From positions 2,319,443 through 2,383,442 of the forward strand of contig OZ246889.1 in assembly GCA_965231825.1 (NCBI GenBank): a DNA stretch of 64,000 nt, written 5' to 3'. A program made the translations under genes and the position numbers. Source of the DNA: Acidobacteriota bacterium (GTDB lineage Bacteria; Acidobacteriota; UBA6911; RPQK01; JAJDTT01). The notes under the pieces are model-generated. The model saw nothing but the letters and a program-made list of their open reading frames with translations, was not told the origin of the DNA and searched no databases. Numbering within the stretch: the stretch's first letter is position 1; every line of letters begins with the position of its first letter. This document shows, in pieces, positions 4,295 through 53,366 of the stretch.

Positions 4295-4379
4295 GGGTTC
4301 TCCCTGGTGGTTGACCGGTCTTCATCCCGGGAAAATCGGGTCCGCTCCGACCCGAAATCGCCCCCGGGGAAATAGCCGC

Positions 4380-4610: not shown

Positions 4611-4686
4611 GCAGAAACTGGCAGGGGCCGGCGAAATCGCCGGCCCCTGCCATGAGGGCGGAATCATTCCGCCTCCGTCAGGCGGT

Positions 4687-5385: not shown

Positions 5386-5669
5386 CGGATTCTCCTTTAC
5401 GTCATTAAAGTTTTCTCCGCGGGAAGCCCGGAGCCTCCAAACTCGCACTTGGCCCGTAACGCGCCGGTACCTGGCGTCCGTCTGTTTTGGGAGTTGCGCG
5501 GGAAGGAGGTTCGGTGCCGCCCGGCTCGATAAGTCTGCGGCCACATGCTTACCGTTGCACTGTGCACACTTTCAGTTTATGAACTTTTTGCGCTCACTGT
5601 GAATTGGGGACTTGATCCGGGTCAGGAGGGATTTCTTCGGAGCGGCGTCAGCGCATTTTGCGCGGAGGC

Positions 5670-9049: not shown

Positions 9050-9091
9050 CGCCTCTTTTTGTTAAGATTGGATTTTGTCGGAGGTGATAGA

Positions 9092-9349
9092 TTGCTGAGA
9101 ATACGTCTAAGTCGACACGGCGCCAAGAAGGATCCTCATTATCGCGTTGTAGTAGCCGAACGCACGAGTCCCAGGGATGGGCGTTTCATTGAAATCCTGG
9201 GGTACTACAATCCAGCTCTCAAACCTGTTCGTCTCAGCTTGAATTTGGAGCGAATCGACCACTGGGTGAAACTGGGTGCTCAGCCTTCAGGAACGGTCAC
9301 GGGCCTGATCAGCAGAGTGCGGCAGCAAGAGCAGCCAGAAGTCAGTTGA
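9092..9349 (+). CDS. rpsP: 30S ribosomal protein S16
   Basis: [44 protein letters not shown] start at 9092 with a GGAGGTGA RBS at 9080-9087. The track ATG at 9059 would add a non-conserved extension. Confidence 0.85.
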
Positions 9350-9425
9350 TGGTCGCGAACAGGCTCGTGCAGGTGCCGTAGCGGCATCGGTCACGGGCTC
9401 CCGGCAGCACTGCCAGGAGGCAACT

Positions 9426-9656
9426 ATGAGAGAGCTTGTCGAGATGATCGCGAAGACGCTGGTTGACGATCCGGAAGAAGTTCGAGTGAGCGAGGTGGTG
9501 GGAGAACAGACCACCGTGCTTGAATTGAGGGTCGCGCAGCATGATCTTGGCAAGGTCATCGGCAGGCAGGGACGAACTGCCCGGGCCATGCGTACTTTGT
9601 TGGGCGCGGCCGGGATGAAGCTGCGCAAGAGATTCGTCCTGGAAATCCTTGAGTAG
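9426..9656 (+). CDS. KH-domain RNA-binding protein (YlqC/UPF0109 family)
   Basis: 76 aa; [35 protein letters not shown] is a KH fold motif. Conserved position between rpsP and rimM. Confidence 0.8.
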
Positions 9657-10172
9657 TTGAGTCAATTCATCGCCATAGCCCTCATCGTCAAGGCGAGGGG
9701 AATACGTGGTGAGGTTGCTGCGGAGGTTCTGACGGACTTCCCGGAGCGGTTCTCCTCTACGACCGGGGTTCGGGTGGCTCTTCCTGACGTGCAGTACCGG
9801 GAGGTCATCGAGTCCGCCCGTTTTCACAAGGGTCGCGTGCTGCTCAAGTTTCGGGGCCGGGAACGACCCGAACAGGTCCGGGAGTTGATTGGGGGGGAGG
9901 TTCAGATCCCGTTGGAGGAGCGCATGCCGCTCCCGGAAGGCTCGTTTTACGAGTCTGATCTCCTGGGTTTGAGAGTCGAGCAAAAGGGGCGCAACCTGGG
10001 GGTGGTCCTCGAATTGTTTCGTACCGGATCCGAAGGCGTGAATCTGGTGATCCGGGACGGGAGCGATCGGGAACTGATGATCCCCCTGGTACGTGCATTG
10101 GTTCGGGATGTGGATCTGGACCGAGGGATCATCCACGTGGATCTTCCGACGGGATTGGCTCCTTCCAGCTAG
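9657..10172 (+). CDS. rimM: 16S rRNA processing protein RimM
   Basis: KARGIRGEV...PRC-barrel C-terminal domain. Conserved synteny rpsP-rimM-trmD-rplS. Confidence 0.85.
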   Translation: MSQFIAIALIVKARGIRGEVAAEVLTDFPERFSSTTGVRVALPDVQYREVIESARFHKGRVLLKFRGRERPEQVRELIGGEVQIPLEERMPLPEGSFYESDLLGLRVEQKGRNLGVVLELFRTGSEGVNLVIRDGSDRELMIPLVRALVRDVDLDRGIIHVDLPTGLAPSS

Positions 10173-16837: not shown

Positions 16838-18769
16838 ATGTCCAAGACCTTCTACCTCACGACTCCTCTCTACTATGTCAACGACGTGCCCCACGTCGGG
16901 CATACCTACACCACCCTCATCGCCGACACCATCATCCGCTACCGGCGAATGTGCGGCGACGACGTCTCCTTCCTGACCGGCACCGACGAGCACGGTCTCA
17001 AGATCGAGCGGTCGGCCCGGCAACAGGGCATCGAGCCCCAGGAGTTGGTGGACACCTATGCCGGCAAGTTTCGCGACACCTGGGAGCGGCTCGGCTTGAG
17101 CTTCAACGAGTTCATCCGGACGACCCAGGAGCGTCACTATCGCGCCGTGGCCAAGCTCTTCCGGGCAGTCAAGAAGAGTGGAAGCGTCTATCTCGGTCAG
17201 TATCAAGGCAACTATTGCGTCGGTTGCGAGGCCTATGTGGCGGACGGCCGGAACTGTCCCGACTGCGGGCGGCCCACCGAGTTCATGACCGAGGACAGTT
17301 ACTTCTTCAAGCTGTCGGCGTTCCAGGAAAAACTGCTCCGGTTCTACCGGGAGAACCCGGACTTCGTGGTCCCTCGCTCCCGTATGAACGAGGTGGTCCG
17401 TTTCGTCGAAGGGGGTCTTCAGGACCTGAGCATCAGTCGAACCTCGTTTCGCTGGGGCATCCCCGTCCCGGACGACGAGAAGCACATCTTCTACGTCTGG
17501 TTCGACGCCCTCACCGGATATATCTCGGGCATGGGCTACGGCACCGACGACGAGAAGTTCGAGAAGTGGTGGCCGGTAGACGTCCACCTCATCGGCAAGG
17601 ACATCCTTCGCTTTCATGCCGTCTACTGGCCGGCGTTCCTGATGGCGGCCGGGCTGGCCCCTCCCAAGCGGATTCTGAGCCACGGATGGTGGACCATCGA
17701 AGGGGAGAAGATGTCCAAGTCCAAGGGCAACTTCATCACCGCCGCCGAGCTCTCGAACGTGGTCCGGACCGACTACTTCCGCTATTTCCTGCTCCGGGAG
17801 ATCCCTTTGGGTTCCGACGGGAACTTTTCCTTCGACGGGCTGCGAACGCGGGTCAACAGCGACCTGGTCAACGACCTGGGAAATCTGGCCCAACGCACGC
17901 TGAAGATGATCCGCAGCTATTTCGGCGGCGTCATTCCGGACGGAGGTTCTGCGGACGAGCGGGGCCGGGAACTCCAGGATTTCTGCGGCGAGACCGCGCG
18001 GCTCTACCAGGATCGGCTCGGGGACCTCCAGATCAACAAGGCCATGGAGGCGGTCTGGGAGCTGATCAGCCGGGTGAACAAGTACCTGGTGGTGAACGAA
18101 CCCTGGATTTTGGCCAAGGACCCGAACCGCCGGGCGCAGCTGGGGAGTGTTCTGTACCATGCCGCTGAAGCGTTGAGGCTGATCGCTCTGATGCTGGGAC
18201 CCATCGTTCCGGAGGGAGCGGCTGCCATATTGCGCCAACTCGGCATCCGGCGGCCCCTCGAGGATCATCGGATTTCCTCTTTGGATTGGGCCGGGCTGGA
18301 AAGCGGTTCCAGCATCGGGAAATTGGGTCACATTTACCCGCGTTTGGACAAGAAGGAGTTTCGAGTGAAAGTGAAGAATCGACGCGCTCCCGGCGCCGCG
18401 AAAGCGAAGAAGACCGCGGGCGCAGCGGCCGGTGGTCAGGAAAATGCCCGCATCGACATCAAGGAGTTCGCCAAGGTCAGGATGCAGGTGGCCCGGATCG
18501 TGAGCGCCGAATCCATCCCCAAGTCGACCCGCCTCCTCAAGGTCAAGGTGGACCTTGGATCGGAGGTCCGCCAAGTGGTGGCTGGAATCGCCGAGCAGTA
18601 TTCACCGGAGTCTCTCCCGGGCCGTCTGGTCGTCATCGTGACCAATCTCAAACCGGCCAAGCTTATGGGTGTCGAATCCAACGGGATGATCGTGGCGGCT
18701 TCGGACGGAGGAAAACCGGTGCTGGCGACGTTCACCGAAGATGTCCGCCTGGGGTCGGTTCTGACCTGA
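16838..18769 (+). CDS. metG: Methionine--tRNA ligase with C-terminal tRNA-binding (Trbp111-like) domain
   Basis: YYVNDVPHVGHTYTTLIADT (HIGH), KMSKS (KMSKSKGN), and a C-terminal KVDLGSEVRQVVAGIAEQY..NLKPAKLMGVESNGMI domain. Confidence 0.95.
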   Translation: MSKTFYLTTPLYYVNDVPHVGHTYTTLIADTIIRYRRMCGDDVSFLTGTDEHGLKIERSARQQGIEPQELVDTYAGKFRDTWERLGLSFNEFIRTTQERHYRAVAKLFRAVKKSGSVYLGQYQGNYCVGCEAYVADGRNCPDCGRPTEFMTEDSYFFKLSAFQEKLLRFYRENPDFVVPRSRMNEVVRFVEGGLQDLSISRTSFRWGIPVPDDEKHIFYVWFDALTGYISGMGYGTDDEKFEKWWPVDVHLIGKDILRFHAVYWPAFLMAAGLAPPKRILSHGWWTIEGEKMSKSKGNFITAAELSNVVRTDYFRYFLLREIPLGSDGNFSFDGLRTRVNSDLVNDLGNLAQRTLKMIRSYFGGVIPDGGSADERGRELQDFCGETARLYQDRLGDLQINKAMEAVWELISRVNKYLVVNEPWILAKDPNRRAQLGSVLYHAAEALRLIALMLGPIVPEGAAAILRQLGIRRPLEDHRISSLDWAGLESGSSIGKLGHIYPRLDKKEFRVKVKNRRAPGAAKAKKTAGAAAGGQENARIDIKEFAKVRMQVARIVSAESIPKSTRLLKVKVDLGSEVRQVVAGIAEQYSPESLPGRLVVIVTNLKPAKLMGVESNGMIVAASDGGKPVLATFTEDVRLGSVLT

Positions 18770-18790
18770 GCGCCGGCTGGAGATCGTTCA

Positions 18791-19609
18791 GTGTTCGTTG
18801 ACTCCCACGCCCATCTCGATGTCCCTGCCCTGTATTCCGACCTGGAGGGAGTCCTGTCCCGGGCCCGGCAGGCCGGCGTGGAGTCGATTCTGACCATCTG
18901 TTGCCTGGAAGAGAATCGTGATTCCGTCGAGACGACGCTGAAATTGTTGGACCGGTACGATTTCCTCTGGGCGGCCTTTGGCGTACACCCTCACGACGCG
19001 CGTTTCTTTTCGGACGGCATCGCCGCCGAGCTGGCCCATCTGCTGCGTCATCCCCAGGCTCTGGCCTTGGGTGAAATCGGTCTCGACTACCACTATCTGA
19101 ACTCTGATATCGACGCTCAGAGGGAGGCGTTTCTGGCACAGATCGATTTGGCTCAGGCTGCGGGTAAACCCATCGTGATCCACTCCAGGAAGGCCGAGGA
19201 GGACATCTGCTCGATTTTGGAGGAGAAGTACCCGCGTGGGGAGGGGCTCAACGGAGTGGTCCACTGTTTCACGTCCGATGAGCCGACTGCCCAGCGTTGC
19301 CTGAATCGGGGTTTCTTCATTGGTTTAGGGGGAATCCTCACCTTTCGCAAGTCCGATTCGCTCCGAGCGGTGGCGAGCCGTTTGCCGGTGGACCGGATTC
19401 TGATCGAAACCGACTCCCCTTACCTGGCCCCGGTCCCCTTCCGGGGCAAGACCAACGAGCCTGCCCGGGTGGTGGAAGTCGCGCGGGAACTGGGCAGAAT
19501 CCGGGCCATGACCCTGGAACAGGTGGGTGAGCGCACCAGATCCAACTTCGAGAGATTGTTCGGCCTCAGATCTCCGAACGTCCCGGCCGGATTGCCAGTC
19601 TCAAATTGA
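18791..19609 (+). CDS. tatD: TatD-family metal-dependent DNase/hydrolase
   Basis: MFVDSHAHLD... conserved His/Asp/Glu motifs of the TatD family. Immediately downstream of metG, as in many bacteria. Confidence 0.9.
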   Translation: MFVDSHAHLDVPALYSDLEGVLSRARQAGVESILTICCLEENRDSVETTLKLLDRYDFLWAAFGVHPHDARFFSDGIAAELAHLLRHPQALALGEIGLDYHYLNSDIDAQREAFLAQIDLAQAAGKPIVIHSRKAEEDICSILEEKYPRGEGLNGVVHCFTSDEPTAQRCLNRGFFIGLGGILTFRKSDSLRAVASRLPVDRILIETDSPYLAPVPFRGKTNEPARVVEVARELGRIRAMTLEQVGERTRSNFERLFGLRSPNVPAGLPVSN

Positions 19610-19756
19610 CGTTGGTATAGTTTTCACGAGTTCTTGCAGGGAGAGGCCGCGAGCGCGGCCGCAGAGGCGATTTCAGCCCGTCGGACGGTTATGAGAAAAA
19701 GCGGAGAACGGGACGGTTCCGGATTACCCTGCGATCCCCGGCCCGTGTGACCAGGA

Positions 19757-20755
19757 ATGGACGTGCAGATCAGCCGCCGCCTCACTCTGAAAGACATTTT
19801 CCTCCTGGTGAAATCGGATCTCGCCGAGGTGGAGATCCGACTCGATTCGGAGATCCAAAGCGCGATTCCATTGGTCAACGACATCAACCGCTATCTGCAC
19901 ACGAGCGGCGGCAAACGGCTTCGGCCGGCGGTTCTGCTGCTGGCGTCCAAGCTCTGCGGGGCCCGTACCGAAGCGGCGCTTCGGCTGAGCGTGGTCGTGG
20001 AGTTGATCCACGTGGCCACCCTGGTCCACGACGACATCATCGACAACAGCGACGTCCGCCGGGGACGGCCCTCGGTCAACGCCAAGTGGGGCAATCAAAC
20101 TACGGTCCTCATGGGGGACTGGCTCTACATGACCTCCTTCCAGATTGCCATGAAGGAGCGGTCGATGAGGATTTTGGACATCCTCATCGACATCACCCGC
20201 AAGATGGTGGAGGGGGAACTCCTGCAGTTGGAGCAGGAGGGGCGCATGGACGTCACCGAGCGACAGCAGTTGGAGATCAGTCTCTACAAGACGGCCTACC
20301 TTTTCTCCGGTTGCGGCCGCCTGGGAGCGATTCTGGGGAACATGGATCCGGCCCGGGAGGAGGGTCTCGCTCTCTACGGCCGGTCCCTGGGTTTGGCCTT
20401 CCAACTGGTGGACGACCAGCTCGACTATACCTCCGCCCAGAAGGACATGGGCAAGCCGGTCCTCAAGGACCTGGAAGAGGGGAAGATGACGCTCCCCATC
20501 ATCTTCATGCTGCAGCGGGCCCAGCGCGCCGAGACGGACTTTGTCCGGCAGGTGATTCGCCAGCACGATTTCACCGATGCCAACAAGCAGGAGATCCTGA
20601 GCCTGGTCTGGAAGTACGGAGCTTTGGATGAACTGAAGCTGCGAGCCCAGACCTACGCCCAGCAAGCCAAGGAAGCGCTTGCGGTCTTTCCCGATTCCAT
20701 CTACCGGGACGCCCTCCTCCAGGTGCCCGACTTCGTCCTGAATCGAAACAACTGA
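19757..20755 (+). CDS. Polyprenyl diphosphate synthase (IspB/HepT-like, trans-IPPS)
   Basis: First DDxxD (LVHDDIIDNSDVRRG) and second DDxxD (FQLVDDQLD) motifs. 332 aa. Confidence 0.9.
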   Translation: MDVQISRRLTLKDIFLLVKSDLAEVEIRLDSEIQSAIPLVNDINRYLHTSGGKRLRPAVLLLASKLCGARTEAALRLSVVVELIHVATLVHDDIIDNSDVRRGRPSVNAKWGNQTTVLMGDWLYMTSFQIAMKERSMRILDILIDITRKMVEGELLQLEQEGRMDVTERQQLEISLYKTAYLFSGCGRLGAILGNMDPAREEGLALYGRSLGLAFQLVDDQLDYTSAQKDMGKPVLKDLEEGKMTLPIIFMLQRAQRAETDFVRQVIRQHDFTDANKQEILSLVWKYGALDELKLRAQTYAQQAKEALAVFPDSIYRDALLQVPDFVLNRNN

Positions 20756-23246: not shown

Positions 23247-23402
23247 AACTGCATTCTACACGACTGGCCCTGTCAGTAACGGGACGGGCGAGTCGGCCGG
23301 GATGTCGGAACGATTGAGTTGACCGAATCCTGATTCACAGCTTTCCCACAGCCGGTCAACAGCATTCCGACAGGCATTGCACAACTGTTCTTCGGACGGG
23401 TC

Positions 23403-24509
23403 TCACTTCGACGCGAAGCGTGTGGCGACGTACTTCCCGGCATCGTTCTCGCTGAGCCGCACCGTGCCCGGGCCGCTCCGGACGTAGAGATCGCCCTTCC
23501 CGGCCTTCTCCAGGCTTTTCCATCGCAAGTAGACCGGCTCGGGACTTCGCTGGCAGCTCACCAGGCAAACGGTCTTGCCCTCCACAATCTGCATCCTGGG
23601 ATCGATGCAGGTGCCGGCCCGGTCGCCGAGTCCGTTGCGCACCACCTGGGCCAGGTGCAGCATGAACTTGTCGTCGGTCTCCAGGCGGTCATGCGCGATG
23701 CCCAGCACCTTGCGGTCGTCGTCCACGCCGATCAGGAGGTCCCCCCCTTCGGTGTTGAGGAATGCGGCAACGGTCTTGAGCGCCGCATGGGTCACGTGCT
23801 TGGGGTCCTTTCGATCCTCCTTCAGGTTCCAGCGGAGGCTCGACTTGAACTCCAGTGTCTTCGACTCCTGGTGCTTTAGCAATTCCTCCGCTCGCCGGTG
23901 CCGCCTGATGTAGTCGTCGAAGAGGAAGTTCTTGAGCGCCTGGCCGAAGTCGGGGTCGTCGGTGATCCGCTTGTAGAGGTCGAAGTTGGTCTCGACGATC
24001 TCCTGGATCTTGTCTTCCACCTTGGGGTCGAACGTCAGCCGCACGTTCTCGCGGGTGTTCACCCGGGCGCTGGCATCGAGGCCCGTGTCCCGGTCCAGGG
24101 CGGACCGGATCTGTTCCAGCGTCACGCGGTGTTCGCTGCCCAGGTTCAGACCGAAGAGCTCCAGGGGCTTGGGCTTCGGAGTGGCCGTGAAGGCGAACGT
24201 CGAGAGGTTGGGGAGCCGGCCGAGAAAACGCGGTTTCACATCGGTCCCATGGTGCTGCTTGAGCTTCTCCCACTTCTTCGGCTGGGTGGCTAGGAGGAAG
24301 TCGAGGACGTCGGCCGGGATCATGCAGAGCCTGCGGTCGTAGGCTTCGGGACGCCGCTTGTGGTAGCCGCCCGGCAAGGGATCATTGCCATATGCCTGCT
24401 GCGATTCCCTCACTGTCGTCGCGTCGCCCGGGCACGCGTCGGGCCCGTAACGCAGCAGCGCGCACTCTATCGCTTCCTCGAAGGCCCGCTCGGATACCTC
24501 CGAGCTCAC
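23403..24509 (-). CDS. Collapsed HsdR-like protein: HsdR N-terminal segment + relic TATP motif + C-terminal AlbA_2/Schlafen-like putative DNA-binding domain
   Basis: The N-terminus SERAFEEAIECALLRYGP...YDRRLCMIPADVLDFLLATQPKKWEKL resembles type I R-subunit N-termini. No PD-(D/E)xK nuclease core and no DEAD/helicase motifs I-II; only FAFTATP remains. The C-terminus ESKTLEFKSSL...TVAAFLNTEGGDLLIGVDDDRKVLGI matches the AlbA_2 domain. The ATG overlaps the hsdS stop (ATGA at 24506-24509). Confidence 0.6.
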   Translation of the reverse strand: MSSEVSERAFEEAIECALLRYGPDACPGDATTVRESQQAYGNDPLPGGYHKRRPEAYDRRLCMIPADVLDFLLATQPKKWEKLKQHHGTDVKPRFLGRLPNLSTFAFTATPKPKPLELFGLNLGSEHRVTLEQIRSALDRDTGLDASARVNTRENVRLTFDPKVEDKIQEIVETNFDLYKRITDDPDFGQALKNFLFDDYIRRHRRAEELLKHQESKTLEFKSSLRWNLKEDRKDPKHVTHAALKTVAAFLNTEGGDLLIGVDDDRKVLGIAHDRLETDDKFMLHLAQVVRNGLGDRAGTCIDPRMQIVEGKTVCLVSCQRSPEPVYLRWKSLEKAGKGDLYVRSGPGTVRLSENDAGKYVATRFASK

Positions 24510-25933
24510 GCGGTCTCCTTCCGGATGTCGATCTTGCCCGTGACAGCCGCAGAGATCAGGGCGGTGCGGAATTCTTTGAGGTGGACGATGGCTTGGCGTA
24601 CCTTCGCGATAAGAGTGTCGACTCTTGCCTTCTCATGAGCCAAGAAAGTTATGGTCGATGTTTGCTCTTTTACCGGCGGAATATTCAGCCAGACTTCTCG
24701 TAGCGAGTCCGAGTAGATGACGTCAATAGTGGTTGCATTGCTCATGAATCGTAGTTGATCGAGCACGATAGAGCATTCCTCGATCTGAATTTCGAGGAAG
24801 CGAGTTAAGATCCGGCGCCGGTCTGGTCGGACCCTCATCAAGCAAGGATGCAGAACGCCCCGCTCGGCCCCATCCGGCAGGATTGCACATCGCCCGATCG
24901 AGCCTTGCGTGGTGATCAATAAGTCACCAGGGAGGACCACAAATGCTCTGAGTTCTGCGAACTTCTCAAGCGAGACGTAGTTTTCACCACTCGAAAAGTC
25001 TCGATCAATCACGCTTCTTTGGTTGTATACCTTAATTTCGCCGGCCTGCATTTCAGAACTCTTGAGCTGACTTCCAAACGGCCCTGTCTTGATAGAGTCC
25101 TTGCTTGCTCTGAGGACGTGTTTCAGTTGCTTCACGTCCCAATGGGCCGGGGTCTGTCCCAACCACTCGATGCCGGAGTCCTTCATGGGGACGTTCGGGT
25201 CGAGGCCCCGGGTGATGGCCCGGGTGATGAGGGCGCTGCGTTTCTCCTGAAGCAACTCGATCAGCCGCTCCTTCCTCGCCACCAGCGCATCGATCCTTTC
25301 CGTTTCGCGGTCGAGGAATTTGACAATGGCGCGTTGTTCGTCTGACGGCGCCATCGGTAAGAGAATGGCTCCAAGAATAGAACCATTCAGATTCCCGAGC
25401 CCAGTTGTGGTTGACGAGAGGAAAATAAGCTGCTCGCGCGCAACCGGGCAGTTCATCAAATACCAGAAGAACCGGGGTAGGTGTTCGGCCGAGACCCTCA
25501 GGCGCTGCATGAAATTGGAGTAGCAGCAGTTCAGGGCTGCAATTGCTTCATCGACAACGGAGGTCTTCCCGATATGGTGTGTGCTTCCACTCGACTTCGC
25601 CACGAGCAGATCTCCCAATAACAGCTTGGCATAGGTCGCTTCGCGAGCGCTGAGTCGCCTTTGAGCTGGTTCTGTAATCCTCCACGCGCCACGCTTGGTT
25701 TGGTCGGTAGACCGCAGGACGATGGTTCCGTCGGCATCGAAGTCTTCACCCCAAACACCGCTGTCATTGCGAACCAGTGACGCCTTAAATGGCTTTGGGT
25801 TCCAATGTGCCGGAATCTTGCCTAGCCACTCGACGCCGGAGTCCCTGTACTTCGAGTAGGAAGGAAAGGGCCGTCGTTGAAGTTCGTCGATCCGATCATT
25901 TCCTTCGGTCACGCGGTCGGTCGCCTCAGTCAC
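24506..25933 (-). CDS. hsdS: Type I restriction-modification specificity subunit HsdS
   Basis: Two target-recognition domains, each preceded by the repeat DSGVEWLG.IPAHW (aa ~45 and ~265). Conserved central and C-terminal coiled regions. TRD DNA is visibly lower in GC. Likely GTG start at 25933 with a GGGAGG RBS; the ATG at 25981 is also possible. Confidence 0.9.
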   Translation of the reverse strand: MTEATDRVTEGNDRIDELQRRPFPSYSKYRDSGVEWLGKIPAHWNPKPFKASLVRNDSGVWGEDFDADGTIVLRSTDQTKRGAWRITEPAQRRLSAREATYAKLLLGDLLVAKSSGSTHHIGKTSVVDEAIAALNCCYSNFMQRLRVSAEHLPRFFWYLMNCPVAREQLIFLSSTTTGLGNLNGSILGAILLPMAPSDEQRAIVKFLDRETERIDALVARKERLIELLQEKRSALITRAITRGLDPNVPMKDSGIEWLGQTPAHWDVKQLKHVLRASKDSIKTGPFGSQLKSSEMQAGEIKVYNQRSVIDRDFSSGENYVSLEKFAELRAFVVLPGDLLITTQGSIGRCAILPDGAERGVLHPCLMRVRPDRRRILTRFLEIQIEECSIVLDQLRFMSNATTIDVIYSDSLREVWLNIPPVKEQTSTITFLAHEKARVDTLIAKVRQAIVHLKEFRTALISAAVTGKIDIRKETA

Positions 25934-26144
25934 CGCTCCCGCCTCCCGTCCGTGCCCGAATCCCAGGCCGCCACGGTCCACCCGCGGGCCAGACCTGGAT
26001 GAACGGGCTCTCCGCGATCAGGCTGTCGCAGACCGGTCCCAGGAAACGGCGCAGCTCCTCACCGACGTCCACGAGGCGATCCGGCCCATCGATGTCGGTC
26101 CCGATCTGCCGCCGCATCTCGCGGATCGCCTTTCGAGGAGTCAT
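25926..26144 (-). CDS. Small hypothetical ORF (72 aa) translationally coupled between abiEi-A and hsdS
   Basis: Its ATG overlaps the abiEi-A stop (ATGA at 26141-26144). Its stop overlaps the proposed hsdS GTG start (GTGACTGA). High-GC, Arg/Gly-rich, no recognisable domain. May be a non-functional relic (for example the stub of a deleted abiEii). Confidence 0.3.
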   Translation of the reverse strand: MTPRKAIREMRRQIGTDIDGPDRLVDVGEELRRFLGPVCDSLIAESPFIQVWPAGGPWRPGIRARTGGGSGD

Positions 26145-26797
26145 GCTGTCAGCACATCGAGTACCGGACCGACGAGCGACTTTGCTCGGCACACGTCGGC
26201 GGCCCGCCAGATCTGGTCGACGCTCGCCTTGCGGTCGCGCAGGGCGTCGCTTAGCGCCTCGATCGCGATGTCCTTGCCGACCAGCCGCCGGAAGCGGAAG
26301 CAGTCCACCACGGTGCGGGCCGGGCTCGTGATACGGACGGGGACCCCCTCGAAGGTCGCGTTCACGACGCCGTAGCGCAGCCTGACCCCGGAGAATCGCA
26401 CCACTCGGATCGGCAGCCCGGGCAGGCGGGGCGTGCGGGCCTTGTGCGGAATGGCGATCCAGACCTCGTGTGGGAGCTGCGTGCCGATCCCGTAGACGCT
26501 CAGGGCCGTCAGCAGGCAGACTACGGCGCTCGGGACCCGGGCGCACACGGCGGCCCGGGTGTAGTGCTCTGTCGGTTCCACGTGGGCGAGGCGGTAGAGC
26601 CCGCGCGCCACTCGCTCGACCGAACCGTCATCCACCAGGCGCCGGAGCGCACGTGAGTGGACGCCCAGAGCGGCCGCGTCGCGCGAACGGAAGAAGGTCT
26701 TGGAGCCGAGCCGCTGCAGGCTAGAGTCACCTGTCGGGGAATATCGCACTGAAATGTCGCCAGATGAATTCAGTTGTTTACCTTTCGATTCATGCAT
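26141..26797 (-). CDS. AbiEi-family (COG5340) antitoxin-like transcriptional regulator, copy A
   Basis: wHTH ..VARGLYRL.., then VVCLLTALSVYGIGTQLPHEVWIAIPHKAR...IRVVRFSG...GVPVRITSPARTVVDCFRFRR.VGKDIAIEAL. Same architecture as AbiEi. Confidence 0.7.
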   Translation of the reverse strand: MHESKGKQLNSSGDISVRYSPTGDSSLQRLGSKTFFRSRDAAALGVHSRALRRLVDDGSVERVARGLYRLAHVEPTEHYTRAAVCARVPSAVVCLLTALSVYGIGTQLPHEVWIAIPHKARTPRLPGLPIRVVRFSGVRLRYGVVNATFEGVPVRITSPARTVVDCFRFRRLVGKDIAIEALSDALRDRKASVDQIWRAADVCRAKSLVGPVLDVLTA

Positions 26798-27010
26798 GCC
26801 ATGAATATAACCGGTGTGAGCTGTCTAGATCAAAATGTCGATAACCATTAATATTTGCCGTCATTATCAGTCATTGGCCGGTTGTCTCGGAAAACAGGGC
26901 CACAATTTCCGTCTCCAGGATGTTCGCCTCGGTCTCCTCACCGGTCTCGCGACTGCGGGCGAGCAGCCGGTCGCGGACGGACGCCGAGATGTTCTTGAGC
27001 GGACGTGTCC

Positions 27011-27612
27011 TCACGACAGAACCGCTTCCATGTACGGCTGCAGGACCGTGCGCGCCCGGCAGACGCTGGCTGCGCGCATGATCTCATCCGGGGTGGCGAG
27101 CCGTTGGCGCAGCACGTCCCGGAGGGCCTCCAGGGCGGTGTCGAGGCCTAACTTGTTGCGGTACCGGAAGCAGTCGACGACCGTCCGGGCCGGCGATGTG
27201 ATGGCAACCGGCACGCCGAGCATTGGGCGGCGGCCGATCCCGTATGTGAGCATCGCCTTCGAGAACCAGACGACCCGAACCTGCGCCGGCACTCGGGCGG
27301 GGCGGCGCGCCTTGCGGTTGATGGCGATCCAGACCTCGTGAGGGGATTCAGTACCGATCTCGTAAACGCGGAGCGCGGTCATCAGGCAGACGATGGCGTG
27401 CGGCACGGCAGCAGCTACCATGGCGACCGTCTCCAGTTCCGTCGGCTCGACCTCGGCCAGCCGGTAAGGGCCGCCGCCGAGGTTCTCAACGGCTCCGGTC
27501 GCAACGAGTCCGCGGAGGCGACGGTAAGGGACACCGAACGGCTCGATGTCTCGCGGCCGGAAAAAGGCACCAATGCCGGCTGCTTCGAGCGCGGCCGCAG
27601 TGAGTTCAGCCA
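27011..27612 (-). CDS. AbiEi-family (COG5340) antitoxin-like transcriptional regulator, copy B
   Basis: About 55% identical to copy A (..GGGPYRLAEVEPTE..IVCLMTALRVYEIGTESPHEVWIAINRKAR..VRVVWFSK..VAITSPARTVVDCFRYRNKLGLDTALEAL..PYMEAVLS). Start taken at ATG 27612 (MAELTAAAL). The track start at 27733 would run through the upstream operator. Confidence 0.7.
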
Positions 27613-27628
27613 TGGATGTATAGTAATT

Positions 27629-27658
27629 TATGTCGGCATATAGGTAATAGTGCCGACA
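27629..27658 (-). promoter_or_regulatory. Perfect inverted repeat ATGTCGGCA-N12-TGCCGACAT just upstream of abiEi-B (candidate autoregulatory operator)
   Basis: Read directly: atgtcggcatataggtaatagtgccgacat, 9-bp arms, AT-rich spacer, within 20 nt of the ATG. Confidence 0.5.
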
Positions 27659-27729
27659 TTTTGTTCTTGCTTTGCTCAGGCCGCCATAGCCGTCGCTTCG
27701 CCTGTTTGCCGTCCAGGGCAGGCGGAGGT

Positions 27730-28158
27730 TCAAGGCGGGGCGAGCGGGTCGACACGCGTGACGGTGTCGATCTGATCGAAGTGCCGGTCTGCCGATAGCA
27801 GCCGATCGATGCCGTGGGCCTCCATCGTTGCGACGTGCAGGGCGTCCCGTGCCGGCAACCCGGGATGCTGCACCAGCAGTTCGACCGCACGGGCCGTCTG
27901 GGGTTCCGTCACCGGCAGGATCTCGTCGCAGATGTCAGTCACGGCCTGGTACACGGTCCGGGCGTCTTCGGGCCGCCTTCGGGGGGCGTGGTAGTGGAGG
28001 ATCTCCTGTAGGACTTCCGTGCTGGTGATCAACCTGGTCCCCTGCTCAGTCGCGGCCAGCAGAGCCCGTCGGCAGGCCTCCCGGTACTGGGCATCACTGC
28101 CCGCGAGGTACATGAACACGTTGGCGTCGACGAAAAGCGAGTCACGCACGCTCGTCAA
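27730..28158 (-). CDS. vapC: PIN-domain toxin VapC
   Basis: LFVDANVFMY..., TSTEVLQEIL, ARDALHVATMEAHGIDRLLSADRHFDQI: PIN-domain acidic residues. 4-nt overlap with the upstream antitoxin gene. Confidence 0.85.
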   Translation of the reverse strand: MTSVRDSLFVDANVFMYLAGSDAQYREACRRALLAATEQGTRLITSTEVLQEILHYHAPRRRPEDARTVYQAVTDICDEILPVTEPQTARAVELLVQHPGLPARDALHVATMEAHGIDRLLSADRHFDQIDTVTRVDPLAPP

Positions 28159-28460
28159 CTGTCCTCGTCACTCCCCAGACCTTCGCTGTTGTGGAGACAG
28201 TCGGTAGCCAGGCCGACCTTCAGCCGGCTGTACTGGCGCTCCCACTCCGGCAGCGATTTCGGCGCTGGGACCGCCCCCTTCGCGTACAGCCTGTCGATGG
28301 CCTCCAGTCGGCGTTGCTGCGCCTCCGGCAGAACGCAGTACTGCACGACGGCCTCCCGCACGACTGCGGCCAACTTCTTCCCTTCGCGTCGTGCAATTCG
28401 CGACACTGCCGCGTACGCTCTCGCATCGAGCGTCACTTGGACTCGCCGTGCACCTCCCAT
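28155..28460 (-). CDS. vapB: Antitoxin VapB (ribbon-helix-helix/CopG-like)
   Basis: MGGARRVQVTLDARAYAAVSRIARREGKKLAAVVREAV is an RHH N-terminus. Coupled to vapC. Start at internal ATG 28460, because the track start at 28481 lies within the promoter -10. Confidence 0.7.
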   Translation of the reverse strand: MGGARRVQVTLDARAYAAVSRIARREGKKLAAVVREAVVQYCVLPEAQQRRLEAIDRLYAKGAVPAPKSLPEWERQYSRLKVGLATDCLHNSEGLGSDEDS

Positions 28461-28461
28461 G

Positions 28462-28545
28462 GCCCGTGATCGTACAGACACATATGATTTGTGTCAACCA
28501 ATGTGACTCGATAAATTTGTGGTGTCAGATATGTGTCAACTCCTG
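28462..28545 (-). promoter_or_regulatory. Near-consensus sigma70 promoter plus direct-repeat operator for vapBC
   Basis: On the coding strand: GTTGACACA...GTTGACACAaatcatatgtgtctgTACGATcacgggccATG. The -35 TTGACA (28492-28497), a 17-nt spacer and the -10 TACGAT (28469-28474) imply a leaderless or very short-leader transcript. GTTGACACA occurs twice (28492-28500 and 28534-28542). Confidence 0.45.
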
Positions 28546-34074: not shown

Positions 34075-35634
34075 GTGCAACCGAAAATGACCAAACGCCA
34101 ATTCCTGCAATCCATCGGCGCCGTCTCCGGGGTTGCCGCCATGTATCGGAGCATGAACGCGCTGGGCATGGCCAGTCCGACTACGGCCGGGACGGCCCAG
34201 TTCCAGTTGACGCCGCAGTCGGGCTACGGAACGAAAGTCGTCATCTTGGGGGCCGGCATTTCCGGTCTCGTCGCCGCCTACGAACTGTCGAAGGCGGGTT
34301 TCGACTGCACGGTCCTGGAGGCCACCGGCCGCGCCGGCGGGCGCAACCTCACGGCTCGGGGCGGGGACGTGATCCGGGAGGAGGACAGCCGGCAATGGGT
34401 GGACTTCGACGCAGAAGACCATCTCTATTTGAACCTCGGTCCGGCCCGCCTGCCGCACCACCACGCGACCATACTCGGGTATTGCCGGAAATTCGGAGTC
34501 GACCTCGAGGTCTTCACCAACGACAACCGGGCGGCTTTCTTCCACAACCAGGATCGCTTCGATGGTCCGGTCGTGGCCCGGCAGGTGATGACGGATACCC
34601 GCGGGTATATTGCCGAACTCCTGGCCAAGGCGGTGAACCGAAATGCCCTGGACAGTGAGTTGACCGGCGAGGACAAGGAATTGATGCTTGACCTGCTCCG
34701 GAGCTATGGCGACCTGGACCCGGATGATTTCTACGCGGGCACGAGCCGCGGCGGGCATCTGGGGCCGCACGTCCATGCCGGTCTGGCGCCGGGAGAGGCC
34801 AACGACCCCCTCGATCTGAGTCAACTGCTCCGGTCGGACTTCTGGCAGTACAAGCTCCATTTCAGCCAATTCCTCGATCAGAACCCCACTCTGCTACAGC
34901 CTGTCGGCGGAATGGACGCTATTGTGGCCGCCTTCGAAGAGCGGGTGGAGCCTCTCATCGCATACCGGAGCATCGTCACGTCGATTCGGAAAACGACGGA
35001 CGGAGTTCGCATCGTCTTCCGGCGACGACGCGGTAGAAGGAGAGTCCTGGAGGCGGACTACGCAATTTGCGCCATACCGGCGCCGGTCCTGAGGGACATC
35101 CCCAACGACTTTTCGCCTGAGACGCAAGCGGCGATCGAGTCGATCGAGTTCACCAACGCGGTCAAGATCGGATTCCAGGCTCAGCGGCGTTTCTGGGAGG
35201 AAGACCACGCCATCTATGGCGGCATTTCGTGGACCGACCAGGACATTACGCAGATCTGGTATCCGGCCTACGGCTATCATCGTGAAAAGGGAATCGTCCT
35301 CGGGGCCTATATCTGGGATCCCGAGCCCGGGCTGCGCTACTCGGAAATGACACCGTCCGAACGCTTGCAGGCCGCCGTCGACGAGGGTGAGCTCATCCAC
35401 CCCGGCTATGCCACGGAACTGGAATCGGGCGTGAGCCGCGCCTGGTCCAAGGTCCGGTTCCAGCGGGGGGGGGTGGCCGGAGAGCTACAAGCCGCCGGAG
35501 CAACTCCGAGAGCCCGATGGAAGGATCTATTTCGCCGGCGATCAACTGAGCGCCTTGCCCGGTTGGCAGGAAGGGGCTGCCCTGGCGGCGCAGGCCGCAG
35601 TGGCCGCGATCCACGAACGGGTCATGATGGCCTG
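34075..35634 (+). CDS. Flavin-containing amine oxidase (MAO/L-amino-acid oxidase family) with Tat-like signal; +1 frameshift in a G9 run
   Basis: KRQFLQSIGAVSGVAAM signal, then VVILGAGISGLVAAYEL...EATGRAGGR (FAD GxGxxG). After the G9 tract (35465-35473) the conserved C-terminus ..PDGRIYFAGDQLSALPGWQEGAALAAQAAVAAIHERVMMA* is in the +1 frame and ends at 35634. The track ORF to 35916 is read-through. GTG start with a GGAGGTGA RBS. Confidence 0.7.
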
Positions 35635-35688
35635 AAAGACCGCGCTGGCGGGTACGCTGCAATCACTGCGCAAGCCGCTTTCTCGGAA

Positions 35689-36153
35689 CTACTGGTCGTG
35701 GAAGGTGGTCAGTTCCATGATCTCGTAGTGCTTGGTCCCGCCGGGGGTTCGGATCTGGACCTCGTCCCCCTCTTCCCGGTTCATCAGGCTGCGGCCGATG
35801 GGAGAAGTGGTGGAGATCTTGCCGGCCTTGACGTCCGACTCCTCGCTGGTGACCAGCCGGTAGGTCACCTCGGTTTCGGTGTCCAGGTCGAAAAGGACCA
35901 CGGTGGACCCGTATGAGACCCGGTCGGTGGGGATCTTGCTCAAATTGATGAGGGAGAATTTGGCCAGTCGTGTTTGCAGATGGGAAAGTTGGGCCTGGAC
36001 GTAGGATTGCCGCTCTTTGGCGGTCTGGTACTCGGCGTTTTCCCGGAGGTCACCCAGTTGCAACGCTTTCTTGAGCGCTGCGGGAAGCTCCTCCCGCAAC
36101 TCCCGCTCCAGCTTCCGGACTTCCGCTTCCAGCTTGGCCTTGGCCTCCTTCAT
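35689..36153 (-). CDS. greA: Transcription elongation factor GreA
   Basis: N-terminal coiled-coil, then the FKBP-like C-domain (..YGSTVVLFDLDTETEVTYRLV...PIGRSLMNREEGDEV). Confidence 0.95.
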   Translation of the reverse strand: MKEAKAKLEAEVRKLERELREELPAALKKALQLGDLRENAEYQTAKERQSYVQAQLSHLQTRLAKFSLINLSKIPTDRVSYGSTVVLFDLDTETEVTYRLVTSEESDVKAGKISTTSPIGRSLMNREEGDEVQIRTPGGTKHYEIMELTTFHDQ

Positions 36154-47523: not shown

Positions 47524-48507
47524 ATGGGCAAGATCCAAGTCCTTTTGAACGGCCTGCAGCACCGGGTGGAATTGGGCCGCAGCGTAGCGGATCTGGTTCA
47601 GGACCTGGAGCTTGACGGGGGCCGGGTCGCGGTCGAGATCAATGAACAGATCGTCGGCCGCGCCCGATGGGCCGAGCAGGAAATCCAAAGCGGCGATCGG
47701 ATCGAAATCGTCCATTTCGTGGGAGGAGGGGCCGTGGAAGACACGCTGACCATAGCCGGACGGGAGTATCGCTCCCGATTGCTGGTGGGAACGGGGAAAT
47801 ACGCGACCTTCGGCCAGATGGAGCAGGCCTTGGAGGCCAGTGGGGCCGAGCTGGTCACGGTGGCCGTGCGGCGCGTCAATGTGACCGACAGGACTCGGGA
47901 ATCCCTCCTGGACTACATCGACCCCAATCGCTACCAACTGTTGCCCAACACCGCCGGCTGCTATACGGCGGCCGAAGCGATCCGATACGCCCGGCTGGGA
48001 CGGGAGGCGGGCCTGTCGAATCTGGTCAAGCTGGAGGTGATCGGAGACGAGCGCACGCTTTTTCCCGACAACGAAGCCTTGCTGAAAGCCACGCACGTGC
48101 TGGTCGAGGAAGGATTCGTGGTGCTCCCCTACACCAACGACGACCCCATCGTCTGCAAGCGGCTGGAGGATGCGGGAGCGGCGGCGGTGATGCCGCTGGG
48201 AGCCCCCATCGGTTCGGGCCTCGGCATCCAGAACCCCAACAACATCCGCATCATCCTGGAGTTCGCCTCGGTTCCGGTCATCGTCGACGCCGGCGTCGGG
48301 ACCGCTTCCGACGCCACGCTGGCCATGGAGCTGGGGGTGGACGGTGTTCTCATGAACACCGGGATAGCGGGCGCCAAGGATCCGGTGTCCATGGCCAGGA
48401 GCATGAGGCTGGCCGTGGAGTCGGGGCGCCTGGCGTATAAGGCGGGGCGGATACCCCGCAAGCTCTACGCCACGGCAAGCAGTCCCCTGGAGGGCGTGCT
48501 GAGTTAG
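47524..48507 (+). CDS. thiG: ThiS-ThiG in-frame fusion (sulfur-carrier domain + thiazole synthase)
   Basis: The N-terminal 68 aa [10 protein letters not shown]...[14 protein letters not shown] is ThiS. It is followed without a stop by [24 protein letters not shown]...KLEVIGD...[14 protein letters not shown] (ThiG). An internal GTG at 47734 could also give free ThiG. Confidence 0.85.
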
Positions 48508-49726: not shown

Positions 49727-50446
49727 ATGGAGGACAGGGAATCGGGGCGGATCCGCCGGATGTTCGGCCGGATTGCTCCCCGATACGACCGGGCCAACCG
49801 CCTTCTCTCGCTGTCCGTGGACCGGCGCTGGAGGCGGGTGGCGCGGCGCGAGCTGGAACGCCGGCTGCCGTCGGACCCGCGGATATTGGACCTTTGCACG
49901 GGAACCGGAGACCTTGCTCTGGAACTCGCCAGTGTGGGTTCGGTGGTGGCGTGTGACTTCTCTCATCCCATGTTGGTTTTGGGTCAGGGGAAGGCATCGC
50001 GTTCCGCAAACGGCCGCCGCATTGCGTTCGCCGAGGGGGACGCGCTGAAACTCCCCTTTCCGGAGCGGTCTTTCGATGCCGTCAGCATCGCCTTCGGGTT
50101 AAGGAATCTGGAAAGCTACCGCCAGGGTCTGGCCGAAATGCATCGGGTGCTCCGGCCCGGAGGCATGTTGGCCATCCTGGAGTTTACGCTCCCCACTTTG
50201 CCGCTGTTGAGGTCGCTGTACCTGTTTTATTTCGTGCGTATCCTGCCTCGACTCGGCGGTTGGATTTCAGGACACGGTCAAGCCTACGATTATCTCTCCC
50301 GGTCAGTGAGGCAGTTTCTCCCTCCCGAGGATCTGGACCGTTTGCTGGAGCGAGCAGGGTTCCGGGAGGTCCGCCACCGAACTCTCTCGGCCGGAATCGC
50401 ATGCCTTCACCTGGGCCGAAAATCGAGATCGGGCGGCTGCCGGTAA
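49727..50446 (+). CDS. ubiE: Demethylmenaquinone/ubiquinone C-methyltransferase UbiE/MenG
   Basis: MFGRIAPRYDRANRLLSLSVDRRWRR... is the UbiE N-terminus. SAM motif LDLCTGTGD. 239 aa. Confidence 0.9.
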   Translation: MEDRESGRIRRMFGRIAPRYDRANRLLSLSVDRRWRRVARRELERRLPSDPRILDLCTGTGDLALELASVGSVVACDFSHPMLVLGQGKASRSANGRRIAFAEGDALKLPFPERSFDAVSIAFGLRNLESYRQGLAEMHRVLRPGGMLAILEFTLPTLPLLRSLYLFYFVRILPRLGGWISGHGQAYDYLSRSVRQFLPPEDLDRLLERAGFREVRHRTLSAGIACLHLGRKSRSGGCR

Positions 50447-50457
50447 AGATCGCGCCG

Positions 50458-51696
50458 TCACAGTTTCATCTCCGGAAAGAGGAGCCGCCAACCCAGTTGA
50501 GTCGGCGGAAAGCTGCGTAGTCCCGATCGGATGGCATCCGCGTCATATCGGACTCTGGCCATGTCCGACAGATGAAGACTCAAAGGGCCCCCGCGGATCG
50601 TCTCTCCGTTCACACTCAGGTTGGAAAGCCAGAGTCCTCCGACGATCTGGGCACGGTCTCTCAGAATGACGCTTCCGCCACCCAGATGGAGCAGGATTCC
50701 CCGGAACCGGACATCTCCCTGCAGGATCAGGTTCCCCCGGGCGATGACGACGCCCGTCACCGCTCCCGACAGGGTTCCTCCCTCCGGAAGATGGACGATC
50801 CCGGTGGCCGGCGAGAGGGTCGGCAGCTGATCCTGGAAATGCCTCCAGAAGACGGCTTGGAAAAGGGAACGATAACGAGGGTCCTCACGGTATGACTCAG
50901 TCGAGTCCCGAATGGAAGGTTCCGGTCCGGCACCGCGGATCCGGCCCGCTTGGGCCGGATTGAGGTTTCGCAGAAACTCGGTGCCGAGTCCATCGCCTCC
51001 CAGGGAAAGGAAGCGAACCCCCGGTTCCCGGTGTCCACCGTCCAGTAGAAATTGGCTTCCCCCCCAATGGAAGTCTCCGTCGTCTCCCGCCAGGGTGAGT
51101 GCGCTCCGGAGTCGAAATGCTGTCTCCTGGAGAAGGCGGGATTCAATCAGAGTCACGCTGTTGCGAGTCGAAGCCAGGAAGGGGCTCCGTAGTTTGAGAG
51201 GAGCCACGCCCATGCTCCGGACCAGAACCACTCCGTCCCGGTCCTGGTGGGCCGGCTCCTCCGGGTTGTTGGAAAACCTCAAGTAGAAACGCCCTCCTCC
51301 CGGATCCGGGTAACCGTTGGGCAGCAGCGGGCTTCGGCCCCGCGCCGGGAGTCCGTCATCGCGGTCGGGTGTCCAACTCTCCGGATCCAAACGGCGAGCC
51401 GCCGAATAGGGGAGGGGATTTCTCCATTCGGGCAGATCGGTTCCGGAGAAGGAACCGTCGGGACCGGAAAGGAGTTCTTCGACATCGATCAGGGGAAGAA
51501 GGCCGCGAGCGAATTCAATTCCGTTCTGGGCCAGGACCATGCTGTAGAGTCGCGCCTCGACCCCTTGGAGCAGCCTCCACTGGATCAGGTTCTGTACGCT
51601 CAGGGTCCAGACCAGAGTCGCCACCAGAGCCGTCGTGAGCAGGGCGGCCAGCAGGGCAAGTCCTGCCTCCGATGCCGGTTTTCGGGGGTCATTCAT
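50458..51696 (-). CDS. GspK/PilX-like minor pseudopilin
   Basis: N-terminus MNDPRKPASEAGLALLAALLTTALVATLV (pseudopilin-like hydrophobic segment lacking Glu5, as in GspK). Large periplasmic body. Last gene of the pseudopilin operon. Start at internal ATG 51696, which gives an 8-nt overlap with the upstream gene. Confidence 0.55.
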   Translation of the reverse strand: MNDPRKPASEAGLALLAALLTTALVATLVWTLSVQNLIQWRLLQGVEARLYSMVLAQNGIEFARGLLPLIDVEELLSGPDGSFSGTDLPEWRNPLPYSAARRLDPESWTPDRDDGLPARGRSPLLPNGYPDPGGGRFYLRFSNNPEEPAHQDRDGVVLVRSMGVAPLKLRSPFLASTRNSVTLIESRLLQETAFRLRSALTLAGDDGDFHWGGSQFLLDGGHREPGVRFLSLGGDGLGTEFLRNLNPAQAGRIRGAGPEPSIRDSTESYREDPRYRSLFQAVFWRHFQDQLPTLSPATGIVHLPEGGTLSGAVTGVVIARGNLILQGDVRFRGILLHLGGGSVILRDRAQIVGGLWLSNLSVNGETIRGGPLSLHLSDMARVRYDADAIRSGLRSFPPTQLGWRLLFPEMKL

Positions 51697-52295
51697 CCCG
51701 GGGAGGGAAGAGGTTGGGCCGGTAGTTTCGAAGCGTGTAGTGGATCGTTTCAACGGTCTCTCCGTCCCCTTTCCAGTGCATCAGGTCGGGACTGACGGCG
51801 CCGGTGAGGCGAAGTTTCAGCAACCGTCCTCCCATCAGAATTTCCCACTGCCGGATCTGTTTCAGGACGGATTGAAAGCTCCCCGCGCCGCTTTTGAGTT
51901 GCAAATGGTCCGTCCGGCAGCGGAGCGACATACTTTCGAAATTGCCCTCGACCCGCCCGTCGGGAAACCCGTCCTCCCCATCCAGGTCGGACTCGAGCTG
52001 GAGGATCCCGGACTGGATCAGGATCCCATCCCCGTCCCGGTCCCACTCCCGGTTGCCTGCTCCCAGGATCCATCCGCCCAGCAGGATCGGGGCCAGGATC
52101 AGGTTCCGGTCCCGTTCCATCAAGCGTGTGAGATTGGTGACAGTGGTCTGAACCTGGTCGAACACTCCCAGGGAAAGGGAGAAAAGGAGTGCGGAGGCAG
52201 CGGTAGCCAGAAGGGACTCGATCAGGCTGAATCCCCGTTCCCCCTCTTTCCTCTCGGCCCCGCGGGATTCCGCCAGCGAATCAATCGGGCTCATT
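51689..52295 (-). CDS. GspJ/PilW-like minor pseudopilin
   Basis: Prepilin-type N-terminal cleavage/methylation motif ...ERG|FSLIESLLATAASALLFSL. Confidence 0.6.
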
Positions 52296-52308
52296 CGGGC
52301 GCCTCCTT

Positions 52309-52629
52309 TCAGGGTAGCGATCGCAGCACCTCCCAACTTGTGGCGTTCTCTTCCTCGGCGCCGGAGACGTTCAGGCGCCACAACGACGGGCCGTCCGGCA
52401 CCGGGACGATCCTTTCCCCTTCCGGCTCCCGGGAGCGGGCCTCTTCGCACCGGTTCCACCTTTGCAGAACCTCCTGGCGCCGTTTTTCCATGATCGCGTA
52501 GTTGCCCAGAGTCAGGGCCAAGGTCTGGATCAAGGCAAGGATGGCGACTGTCAATATCGTTGTGGCCATCAGGTGCTCCAGAAAGGCGAATCCCTTCTCG
52601 GCGCTGTCCCCGGCTATCCTCTCTGCCAT
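52309..52629 (-). CDS. GspI/PilV-like small minor pseudopilin
   Basis: ...AEKG|FAFLEHLMATTILTVAILAL prepilin motif. 106 aa. Confidence 0.6.
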   Translation of the reverse strand: MAERIAGDSAEKGFAFLEHLMATTILTVAILALIQTLALTLGNYAIMEKRRQEVLQRWNRCEEARSREPEGERIVPVPDGPSLWRLNVSGAEEENATSWEVLRSLP

Positions 52630-53084
52630 CGAATCCTCCCGGCCGGCGAGATCACGATGCGGATCTTTCCGGCGGAATTGCCCAGGACGAACGTCCCGCC
52701 AGGAGCGGCGGTCCCTCGGGAATGGAAGGATATGTCGCGGTTTGGCCTCCGGACGACCCGGACCCCCCTGGGGAGGTTCATCCAGTGTCCAGCCTCTTCC
52801 CCCTCCGGTGCGATGGTGGCGCTTCCCGCGTCGGTTGAGATTCGGATCTGTACGGTCAGATTCCGCCCGACGGCCTCCATACGCCCCTGCTCCAGGAGGG
52901 AGAGAAAGAGATGAGATCCCTGCGACAGCCTCCAGTGATCCCGCACCTGCTGATAGGCCGGCCATGCCAGCGAGGCCAGAAAGCCGATGAGCAGGCAGGT
53001 CAACGTGACTTCCAACAACTGATAGCCGTGAACATTCCCGCGTGCTCGGGATCCGGTTCGGACACGCGCCTTTCCGGCAGCCAC
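52614..53084 (-). CDS. GspH/FimT-like minor pseudopilin
   Basis: ...NVHG|YQLLEVTLTCLLIGFLASLAW prepilin motif. 156 aa. Confidence 0.6.
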   Translation of the reverse strand: MAAGKARVRTGSRARGNVHGYQLLEVTLTCLLIGFLASLAWPAYQQVRDHWRLSQGSHLFLSLLEQGRMEAVGRNLTVQIRISTDAGSATIAPEGEEAGHWMNLPRGVRVVRRPNRDISFHSRGTAAPGGTFVLGNSAGKIRIVISPAGRIRWQRG

Positions 53085-53242
53085 TCCGGTGAAACGAGTC
53101 GGAAGCAGGTTCGCGGAAGTCTCCGGCAGACGTTTCAGCGGTACTGCGTTGGTAGCGATGGTCCCACCCCTTTCCGTGTGTTGCCTTCACGAAACTCAAA
53201 CGATCCCCACCGGAAAAGTATGAAGGTGTCTTCGGGGAGCAC

Positions 53243-53366
53243 GGAAAATGAGGAAAGAGGAAAGAGGAGAGAGAAAAGAGTGAAGAAGCCGTAGCTGCCG
53301 CAGGGGGTGAGGAGCCGGCTGCCAACTCCTCTCTCTTTACTTTTTCCTCTTTCCTCTTTCCTCTCC
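53243..53366 (-). terminator. Long GA/CT-rich inverted repeat (18-bp perfect stem) + U-tract: probable tsaE terminator
   Basis: Arm 53250-53285 (gaggaaagaggaaagagg...) pairs with arm 53328-53366 (cctctttcctctttcctc...). The second arm encodes the tsaE C-terminal GEERGKRKK and stop. On the minus-strand RNA the stem is followed by AUUUUCC. Confidence 0.45.

Follow-up and report, generated by a model that had tools for sequence, protein, structure and literature searches.

Reversible frameshifts at a C7 tract are known from glpK of Mycobacterium tuberculosis, so such events are possible in high-GC bacteria. Polymerase slippage on long homopolymers can also partly rescue genes that are frameshifted, for example at poly(A) in insect endosymbionts, and the best evidence for slippage comes from A/T runs, not from G/C runs. 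The contingency loci of Campylobacter, Neisseria and Haemophilus, as described in two studies (PMC4965091, PMC3315296), have polyG or polyC tracts, and share with the locus reported here an in-frame G run of at least 8 in which a change of one base toggles the frame. In the first study, polyG/polyC tracts of at least 7 in Campylobacter jejuni serve as an example of phase variation (PMC4965091). According to the second, the indel variability of simple repeats climbs steeply with repeat length, and where phase variation is selected for, repeats accumulate near N-termini (PMC3315296). Frameshifted gene calls also have a technical source: the indels left over in long-read consensus sequences concentrate in homopolymers, with base-specific trouble at homopolymer lengths of 8-9 (PMC9262707). 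Here, we analysed a stretch of 64,000 nucleotides (the window, G+C 62.4%), in which a gene for a flavin L-amino-acid-oxidase-like protein is broken at a run of nine G. The frame break exists in this record alone, and the relatives of the gene are intact.

The 5' 89% of the oxidase gene is located on the forward strand at 34075..35464, in frame 0, and encodes residues 1-463 and the first base of codon 464. The G9 homopolymer, GGGGGGGGG, follows at 35465-35473 on the same strand, at codons 464-466 of 519, and it is the site of a +1 frame break. As assembled, the open reading frame (ORF) begins with the GTG at 34075 and stays open to 35916, which gives 613 amino acids; it contains ...AWSKVRFQRGGVAGELQAAG... 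and reads through the G9 as ...AWSKVRFQRGGVAGELQ... The last part of this ORF, 35474..35916 on the forward strand, is a spurious frame-0 tail of 147 residues without a family match that runs antisense through greA and overlaps it by 228 nt. The gene greA (35689..36153, minus strand, 154 amino acids) is the convergent neighbour and is intact, and its protein is identical in four conspecific contigs. The true 3' end of the oxidase gene, 35474..35635 on the forward strand, is out of frame and encodes W467 to A519 plus the stop codon TGA at 35633-35635; in the +1 frame, translation from 35474 gives WPESYKPPEQLREPDGRIYFAGDQLSALPGWQEGAALAAQAAVAAIHERVMMA. This 3' end holds two conserved motifs of the FAD domain, IYFAGD (35525-35542) and GWQEGA (35561-35578). 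When one G is deleted, a protein of 519 amino acids is obtained, which matches the Amino_oxidase profile PF01593 over positions 1-442/443 (E 8e-50), compared with 1-392/443 as assembled. A full-length match that includes the C-terminal segment of the FAD domain (..YFAGD/E..) is thus absent as assembled and appears only after the one-G deletion. The sequence, the ORF map and the lengths of the Pfam matches therefore bear out the initial annotation on the G9 with its +1 frameshift, the 519-residue product and the run-on through greA; its end of the repaired protein at 35634 was one base off.

Two further observations concern the surroundings of the run. A scan of the intergenic spacer 35636-35688 for promoters and terminators, together with folding, gave no signal above shuffled sequences. 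At the site that corresponds to 35460-35478, all relatives have an inverted repeat, CCAGC-GGGGGG-GCTGG, with a stem of 5 bp. The G9-T of the window destroys the 3' arm of this repeat, and no function is suggested for it.

Among characterised proteins, the one closest to the oxidase is an L-amino acid oxidase from Rhodococcus opacus (PDB 2JAE). It aligned over residues 54-517 with an E-value of 2.9e-83, the query being not the window ORF but the intact homologue P0001, which is 99% identical to the window protein and aligns end to end, including the C-terminal IYFAGD...WQ.GA. The repaired window protein adds to its full-length PF01593 match an N-terminal GxGxxG dinucleotide-binding motif, VVILGAGISG, at residues 55-64 (34237-34266; NAD_binding_8, E 2.6e-10). 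Two things set it apart from that enzyme: the copy as assembled is short of its last 53 residues, and none of the NCBIfam equivalogs scores above its cut-off for the protein. The N-terminus, MTKRQFLQS, includes a Tat-like motif TKRQFLQS (34090-34113), in the place of which some homologues have RR (MTRRNFIQS), and it looks like a twin-arginine export signal. The gene is a normal, selected one for a predicted Tat-exported, putatively FAD-dependent L-amino-acid-oxidase-like enzyme. In the fold of such flavoenzymes, a C-terminal strand and helix with the FAGD/E motif return to the FAD-binding domain. Loss of residues 467-519 should consequently abolish cofactor binding, and the lesion, if real, would inactivate the enzyme, because the missing tail holds the conserved IYFAGD and GWQEGA, which match the C-terminal end of the R. 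opacus enzyme in the alignment. At the break itself, the motif FQ[KR]G[GA]WP is found in 128 of the 131 homologues retrieved, all of which have 487-537 amino acids.

Genes for L-amino-acid-oxidase-like proteins with 60-72% protein identity are also present in metagenome-assembled genomes (MAGs) across phyla (loci L003-L081), many of them from sponge metagenomes. Their labels include Acidobacteriota, Binatia, Chloroflexota, Alpha- and Gammaproteobacteria, Nitrospinota, Thermodesulfobacteriota and Candidatus Synechococcus spongiarum. Identity this high between phyla suggests that a niche-specific, putatively exported oxidase has spread horizontally among sponge symbionts.

A protein search found two intact relatives of 519 amino acids, P0001 (99% identical) and P0002 (92%), whose contigs share the gene order of the window, in which the amine oxidase faces greA convergently and nuoN comes next. 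An exact match to the GreA protein of the window recovered another four conspecific contigs, which come from other assemblies. Exact searches with the 613-residue ORF, NuoN and the ICMT-like protein gave no match, and the one with GreA found other strains only. The conspecific contigs (L001, L082, L083, L084 and L085) belong to five assemblies and have 97.5-99.7% nucleotide identity, and the scaffold-, ptg- and NODE-style names of their records point to different assemblers. At the site of the run, 5 of 5 read CAGC-GGGGGGG-C-TGG, that is CGG GGG GGC TGG (R G G W), in frame. Across 1182 bp, L085 and the window disagree at just two further positions. L002-L005 and L073 (85-96% identical) also have the G7-C, which brings the total to 10 of the 10 closest DNA relatives, all intact. 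The relatives thus have GGGGGGGC (8 nt) in place of 35465-35473, as part of Arg464-Gly465-Gly466. L008 has G7-T, L006, L007 and L086 have GGGGAGGC, and other phyla have GCGGCGGC or AAGGGCGGC at the tract. There was no polymorphism of tract length among the 14 relatives with at least 85% nucleotide identity, and no pure run longer than 7 at the site in the relatives compared. Protein length is 515-521 amino acids in all 13 members of two 90% protein clusters, and the frame is broken in 1 of at least 17 sequences, the window record only.

Two changes at the site are seen in the window only: a synonymous GGC->GGG (C->G at the third codon position) and one added G. Substitutions unique to the window amount to about 6 per 2.5 kb, and the divergence of its lineage is 0.3-1%. 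The dN/dS ratio of the oxidase gene against six relatives is 0.14-0.22, and the gene is under purifying selection in the lineage. From the run onwards, 57 codons to the stop, the only change against L001 or L082 is GGC->GGG. A 53-residue tail without decay would fit an artefact or a very young mutation alike. These comparisons revise the initial annotation, which had implied that a G8 became a G9, whereas the intact close relatives carry G7 followed by C.

Upstream of the oxidase, synteny differs between strains, and homology to L001 and L082 begins at window position 33951. The window, L002 and L086 have genes for a BNR-repeat protein, a type III polyketide synthase (PKS) and an ICMT/PEMT-like protein there; in L001 and L082, with 97.5-99% identity downstream, an AAA_15/AAA_21 ATPase takes their place.

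The G9 at 35465-35473 is the only homopolymer of at least 9 bases in the 64 kb, the next being C8 at 63777 and T8 at 47063. In shuffles that preserve dinucleotides, 4.39 G9 or C9 runs are expected per window and at least one occurs in 97 of 100, so one G9 is not unexpected for this composition, and the real sequence is poorer in long runs than the shuffles, that is, depleted. The run, which the initial annotation had called rare, is empirically so here, but its presence does not exceed chance. The initial annotation had further proposed that the tract could act as an on/off switch. According to this explanation, reversible slippage between G8 and G9 would toggle a secreted, H2O2-producing amino-acid oxidase in the symbiont population; an in-frame G9 is a classical substrate of phase variation, and an exported oxidase that produces peroxide would be a plausible trait of cost and benefit. 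Such a contingency locus is nevertheless very improbable. Its tract is not kept as a pure repeat in the relatives (G7-C, G7-T, GGGGAGGC, GCGGCGGC, AAGGGCGGC) and has no length variants there, the off state occurs in 1 of at least 17 sequences only, and a second long G/C tract is absent from the 64 kb. The tract is also at codons 464-466 of 519 and not N-terminal. It thus departs from the known polyG/polyC contingency loci in being absent or interrupted in relatives, 3'-terminal and the sole such tract in the window. A related idea, to which we give very little credence, is that of a nascent contingency locus, in which an exported oxidase of a high-GC, non-pathogenic sponge symbiont would have newly acquired its poly-G through GGC->GGG. 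The comparison of G-run length among orthologues had been named beforehand as a check on the switch, and since the tract is neither conserved nor length-variable in relatives and lies at codon 464 of 519, a switch is not supported. Sequencing error and genuine slippage, which the annotation had offered side by side, are both still live explanations.

Programmed recoding would restore the frame, and thereby yield full-length enzyme from the G9 allele, if tRNA-Gly slipped by +1 on GGG GGG G during translation or if the polymerase slipped on the G9 during transcription. A tRNA-Gly in the P site could re-pair perfectly in the +1 frame on a run of G. Programmed sites are conserved, however, and 0 orthologues have a shift at this site; moreover, the next frame-0 codon, GTG, is neither a stop nor obviously slow, and the frame-0 product past the run has no family match. 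We therefore consider recoding extremely improbable. A conserved programmed frameshift was rejected, since no orthologue has it.

The rest of the window was examined for similar breaks. Frames were assigned by a seven-state hidden Markov model (HMM) of GC content by codon position, which replaced a crude ORF map that contained antisense ORFs without Pfam matches. The frame-0 coding signal of the oxidase ends at about 35486, 13 nt past the run, and this is the sole unexplained end of coding signal; each of the other same-strand changes of phase coincides with the stop codon of the upstream gene. Among about 60 genes, codon phase and Pfam revealed no further frame break, the segments 3536-5686 and 50247-53358 being unphased: the HMM scored both as 'non-coding', and Pfam was uninformative for most of their ORFs. 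Pfam spot checks were full-length for ArgRS, SelB, ThiS-ThiG, DHQ synthase, UbiE, prepilin peptidase and phosphodiesterase. Against the conspecific contigs, aligned over 3.5-5.2 kb, the G run is the sole coding indel, and against L002, over about 18 kb, all other coding indels are multiples of three or are compensated within a few bases. Six other runs of at least 7 bases, including the C8 and the T8, sit in ORFs that look coding and are uninterrupted; the C8 falls on SRPPRIG, close to the end of an ORF of 234 amino acids. The rest of the window being clean, a generally error-prone assembly is excluded.

Several other features of the window were noticed. The segments 50247-53358 (3.1 kb) and 3536-5686 (2.2 kb) lack the usual GC signal by codon position, and their composition is atypical for the genome. 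The first contains a GspH-like pseudopilin ORF (52614-53084) and ORFs without a Pfam match, and the ORFs of the second have at most a sub-threshold match to Spond_N. A variable island of defence type, with a gene content unlike that of L002 and L086, is located at about 23400-28500. It comprises an SLFN_AlbA_2 gene (23406-24632), an ORF like the specificity subunit of type I restriction-modification systems (24509-26017), an AbiEi-like gene (26144-26824) and a PIN-domain gene; beside the AbiEi-like gene, a remnant of 162 nt (25914-26075) matches the AbiEii region of L002. ThiS and ThiG are fused in a single ORF of 327 amino acids at 47524-48507, with ThiS at residues 7-69 and ThiG at residues 76-321.

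We infer that the cause of the frame break in the oxidase gene is technical. The most probable explanation, at slightly better than even odds, is that the G9 is an error of consensus or base calling in the region's longest homopolymer. Signal-based long-read callers could absorb a C into a run and over-call its length. In that case, the genome would in truth carry either G8-T, with a real synonymous GGC->GGG and one over-called G, or the ancestral G7-C-T, whose C was taken up into a run that was also called too long. An intact enzyme of 519 amino acids would be made in both cases, and there would be no biological frameshift. Several lines of evidence favour an error of this kind. The five conspecific contigs, from different assemblers, all have G7-C in frame, and G7-C is kept out to 85% identity (L002-L005, L073). 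The gene is under purifying selection with its codons after the run unchanged apart from GGC->GGG, and the lesion falls in the longest homopolymer of the window. Furthermore, the change is compound, and one miscall of GGGGGGGC would account for both of its parts; an unrelated substitution that hit this very base by chance would have a probability of about 0.1-0.2%, as calculated from about 6 per 2.5 kb. The locus thus shares with known long-read homopolymer errors a single-base change of length in the longest run, an undecayed downstream frame and its restriction to one record. It differs from them in that the window has no other such error, and in that C->G is not a pure error of length.

An error is also favoured by the nature of the related records, most of which are long-read MAGs of sponge symbionts, two of them with single-base breaks in the same gene. 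L079 (OZ251509.1), a long-read MAG of Alphaproteobacteria, is frameshifted at a pure G11 (3680-3690), at the site of which its 93% relative L044 has GGGGGGCACGGG (G6CACG3). In this gene family, L079 is thus a second case of frame loss at a pure poly-G that stands where a relative has a G-rich stretch with interruptions. The Binatia MAG L015 (CBDBDK010000004.1) has a one-base deletion at about 4490-4500, TTGCC-GGCTGG, where seven relatives have TTGCC[C/G]GGCTGG, and its last about 30 residues are out of frame. L086, a 9x contig of metaMDBG style, has its phosphodiesterase split into 335 and 303 amino acids (18355-20338) by a one-base insertion, ATCCG[C]GGGAATC, which corresponds to window position 43019. 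In L086 at 8285-9934, the type III PKS and the ICMT-like gene are fused into one call of 549 amino acids. The breaks in L086 may be consensus errors of low coverage. Only four G/C runs of at least 9 occur in 677 kb of related MAG loci, and one of them, a C9 in L052 (N-terminus of an aceE-like gene), is in frame. In metagenome contigs of the JGI, the G8/G9 pattern gave 0 matches, as did the G7-C control, this collection being without the lineage.

The absence of frameshifting indels and frame breaks from the rest of the window argues against a consensus error. With an accurate platform and good coverage, an error at a 9-mer is uncommon. In HiFi-type data errors of substitution are rare, and the C->G would thus be real on such a platform. 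These points speak for a real, very recent and strain-specific frameshift, a young pseudogene without an adaptive role, to which we assign a considerable but less than even probability. The synonymous GGC->GGG would have turned G7-C into a pure G8, to which replication slippage would then have added one G; the product would have lost its last 53 residues and gained 147 nonsense residues. An assembly otherwise free of frame breaks makes its consensus look reliable. The C->G is synonymous and at a third position, like most other differences specific to the window, and so agrees with a real substitution by which a mutational hot spot then arose. A pure G8, once formed, is a hot spot of slippage (PMC3315296). 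The gene is, however, under purifying selection in all relatives, with 0 of 13 cluster members and 0 of 10 close DNA loci disrupted, and two events on adjacent bases would be needed in a lineage that is 0.3-1% diverged. Nor is there additional decay past the break, although a very young lesion would show none anyway. The locus resembles known young pseudogenes formed by homopolymer frameshifts in that one strain is disrupted, the conspecifics are intact and secondary decay is absent, and it differs from them in being compatible with an artefact as well.

The frameshift is therefore real in the record and confined to it, as a miscalled homopolymer or as an ordinary, very recent pseudogene at strain level, and the finding is ordinary whichever the cause. 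It would be of wider interest only under the unlikely reading of a switch. For annotation, the gene is best described as encoding an L-amino-acid-oxidase-like flavoprotein of 519 amino acids with a predicted Tat signal and a suspected frameshift at 35465-35473, since the chimeric ORF of 613 amino acids swallows part of greA in antisense and might cause greA to be miscalled or left out. Should the extra G be real, a single strain of this sponge-associated lineage of Acidobacteriota would just have lost the enzyme, as an ordinary strain-level pseudogene.
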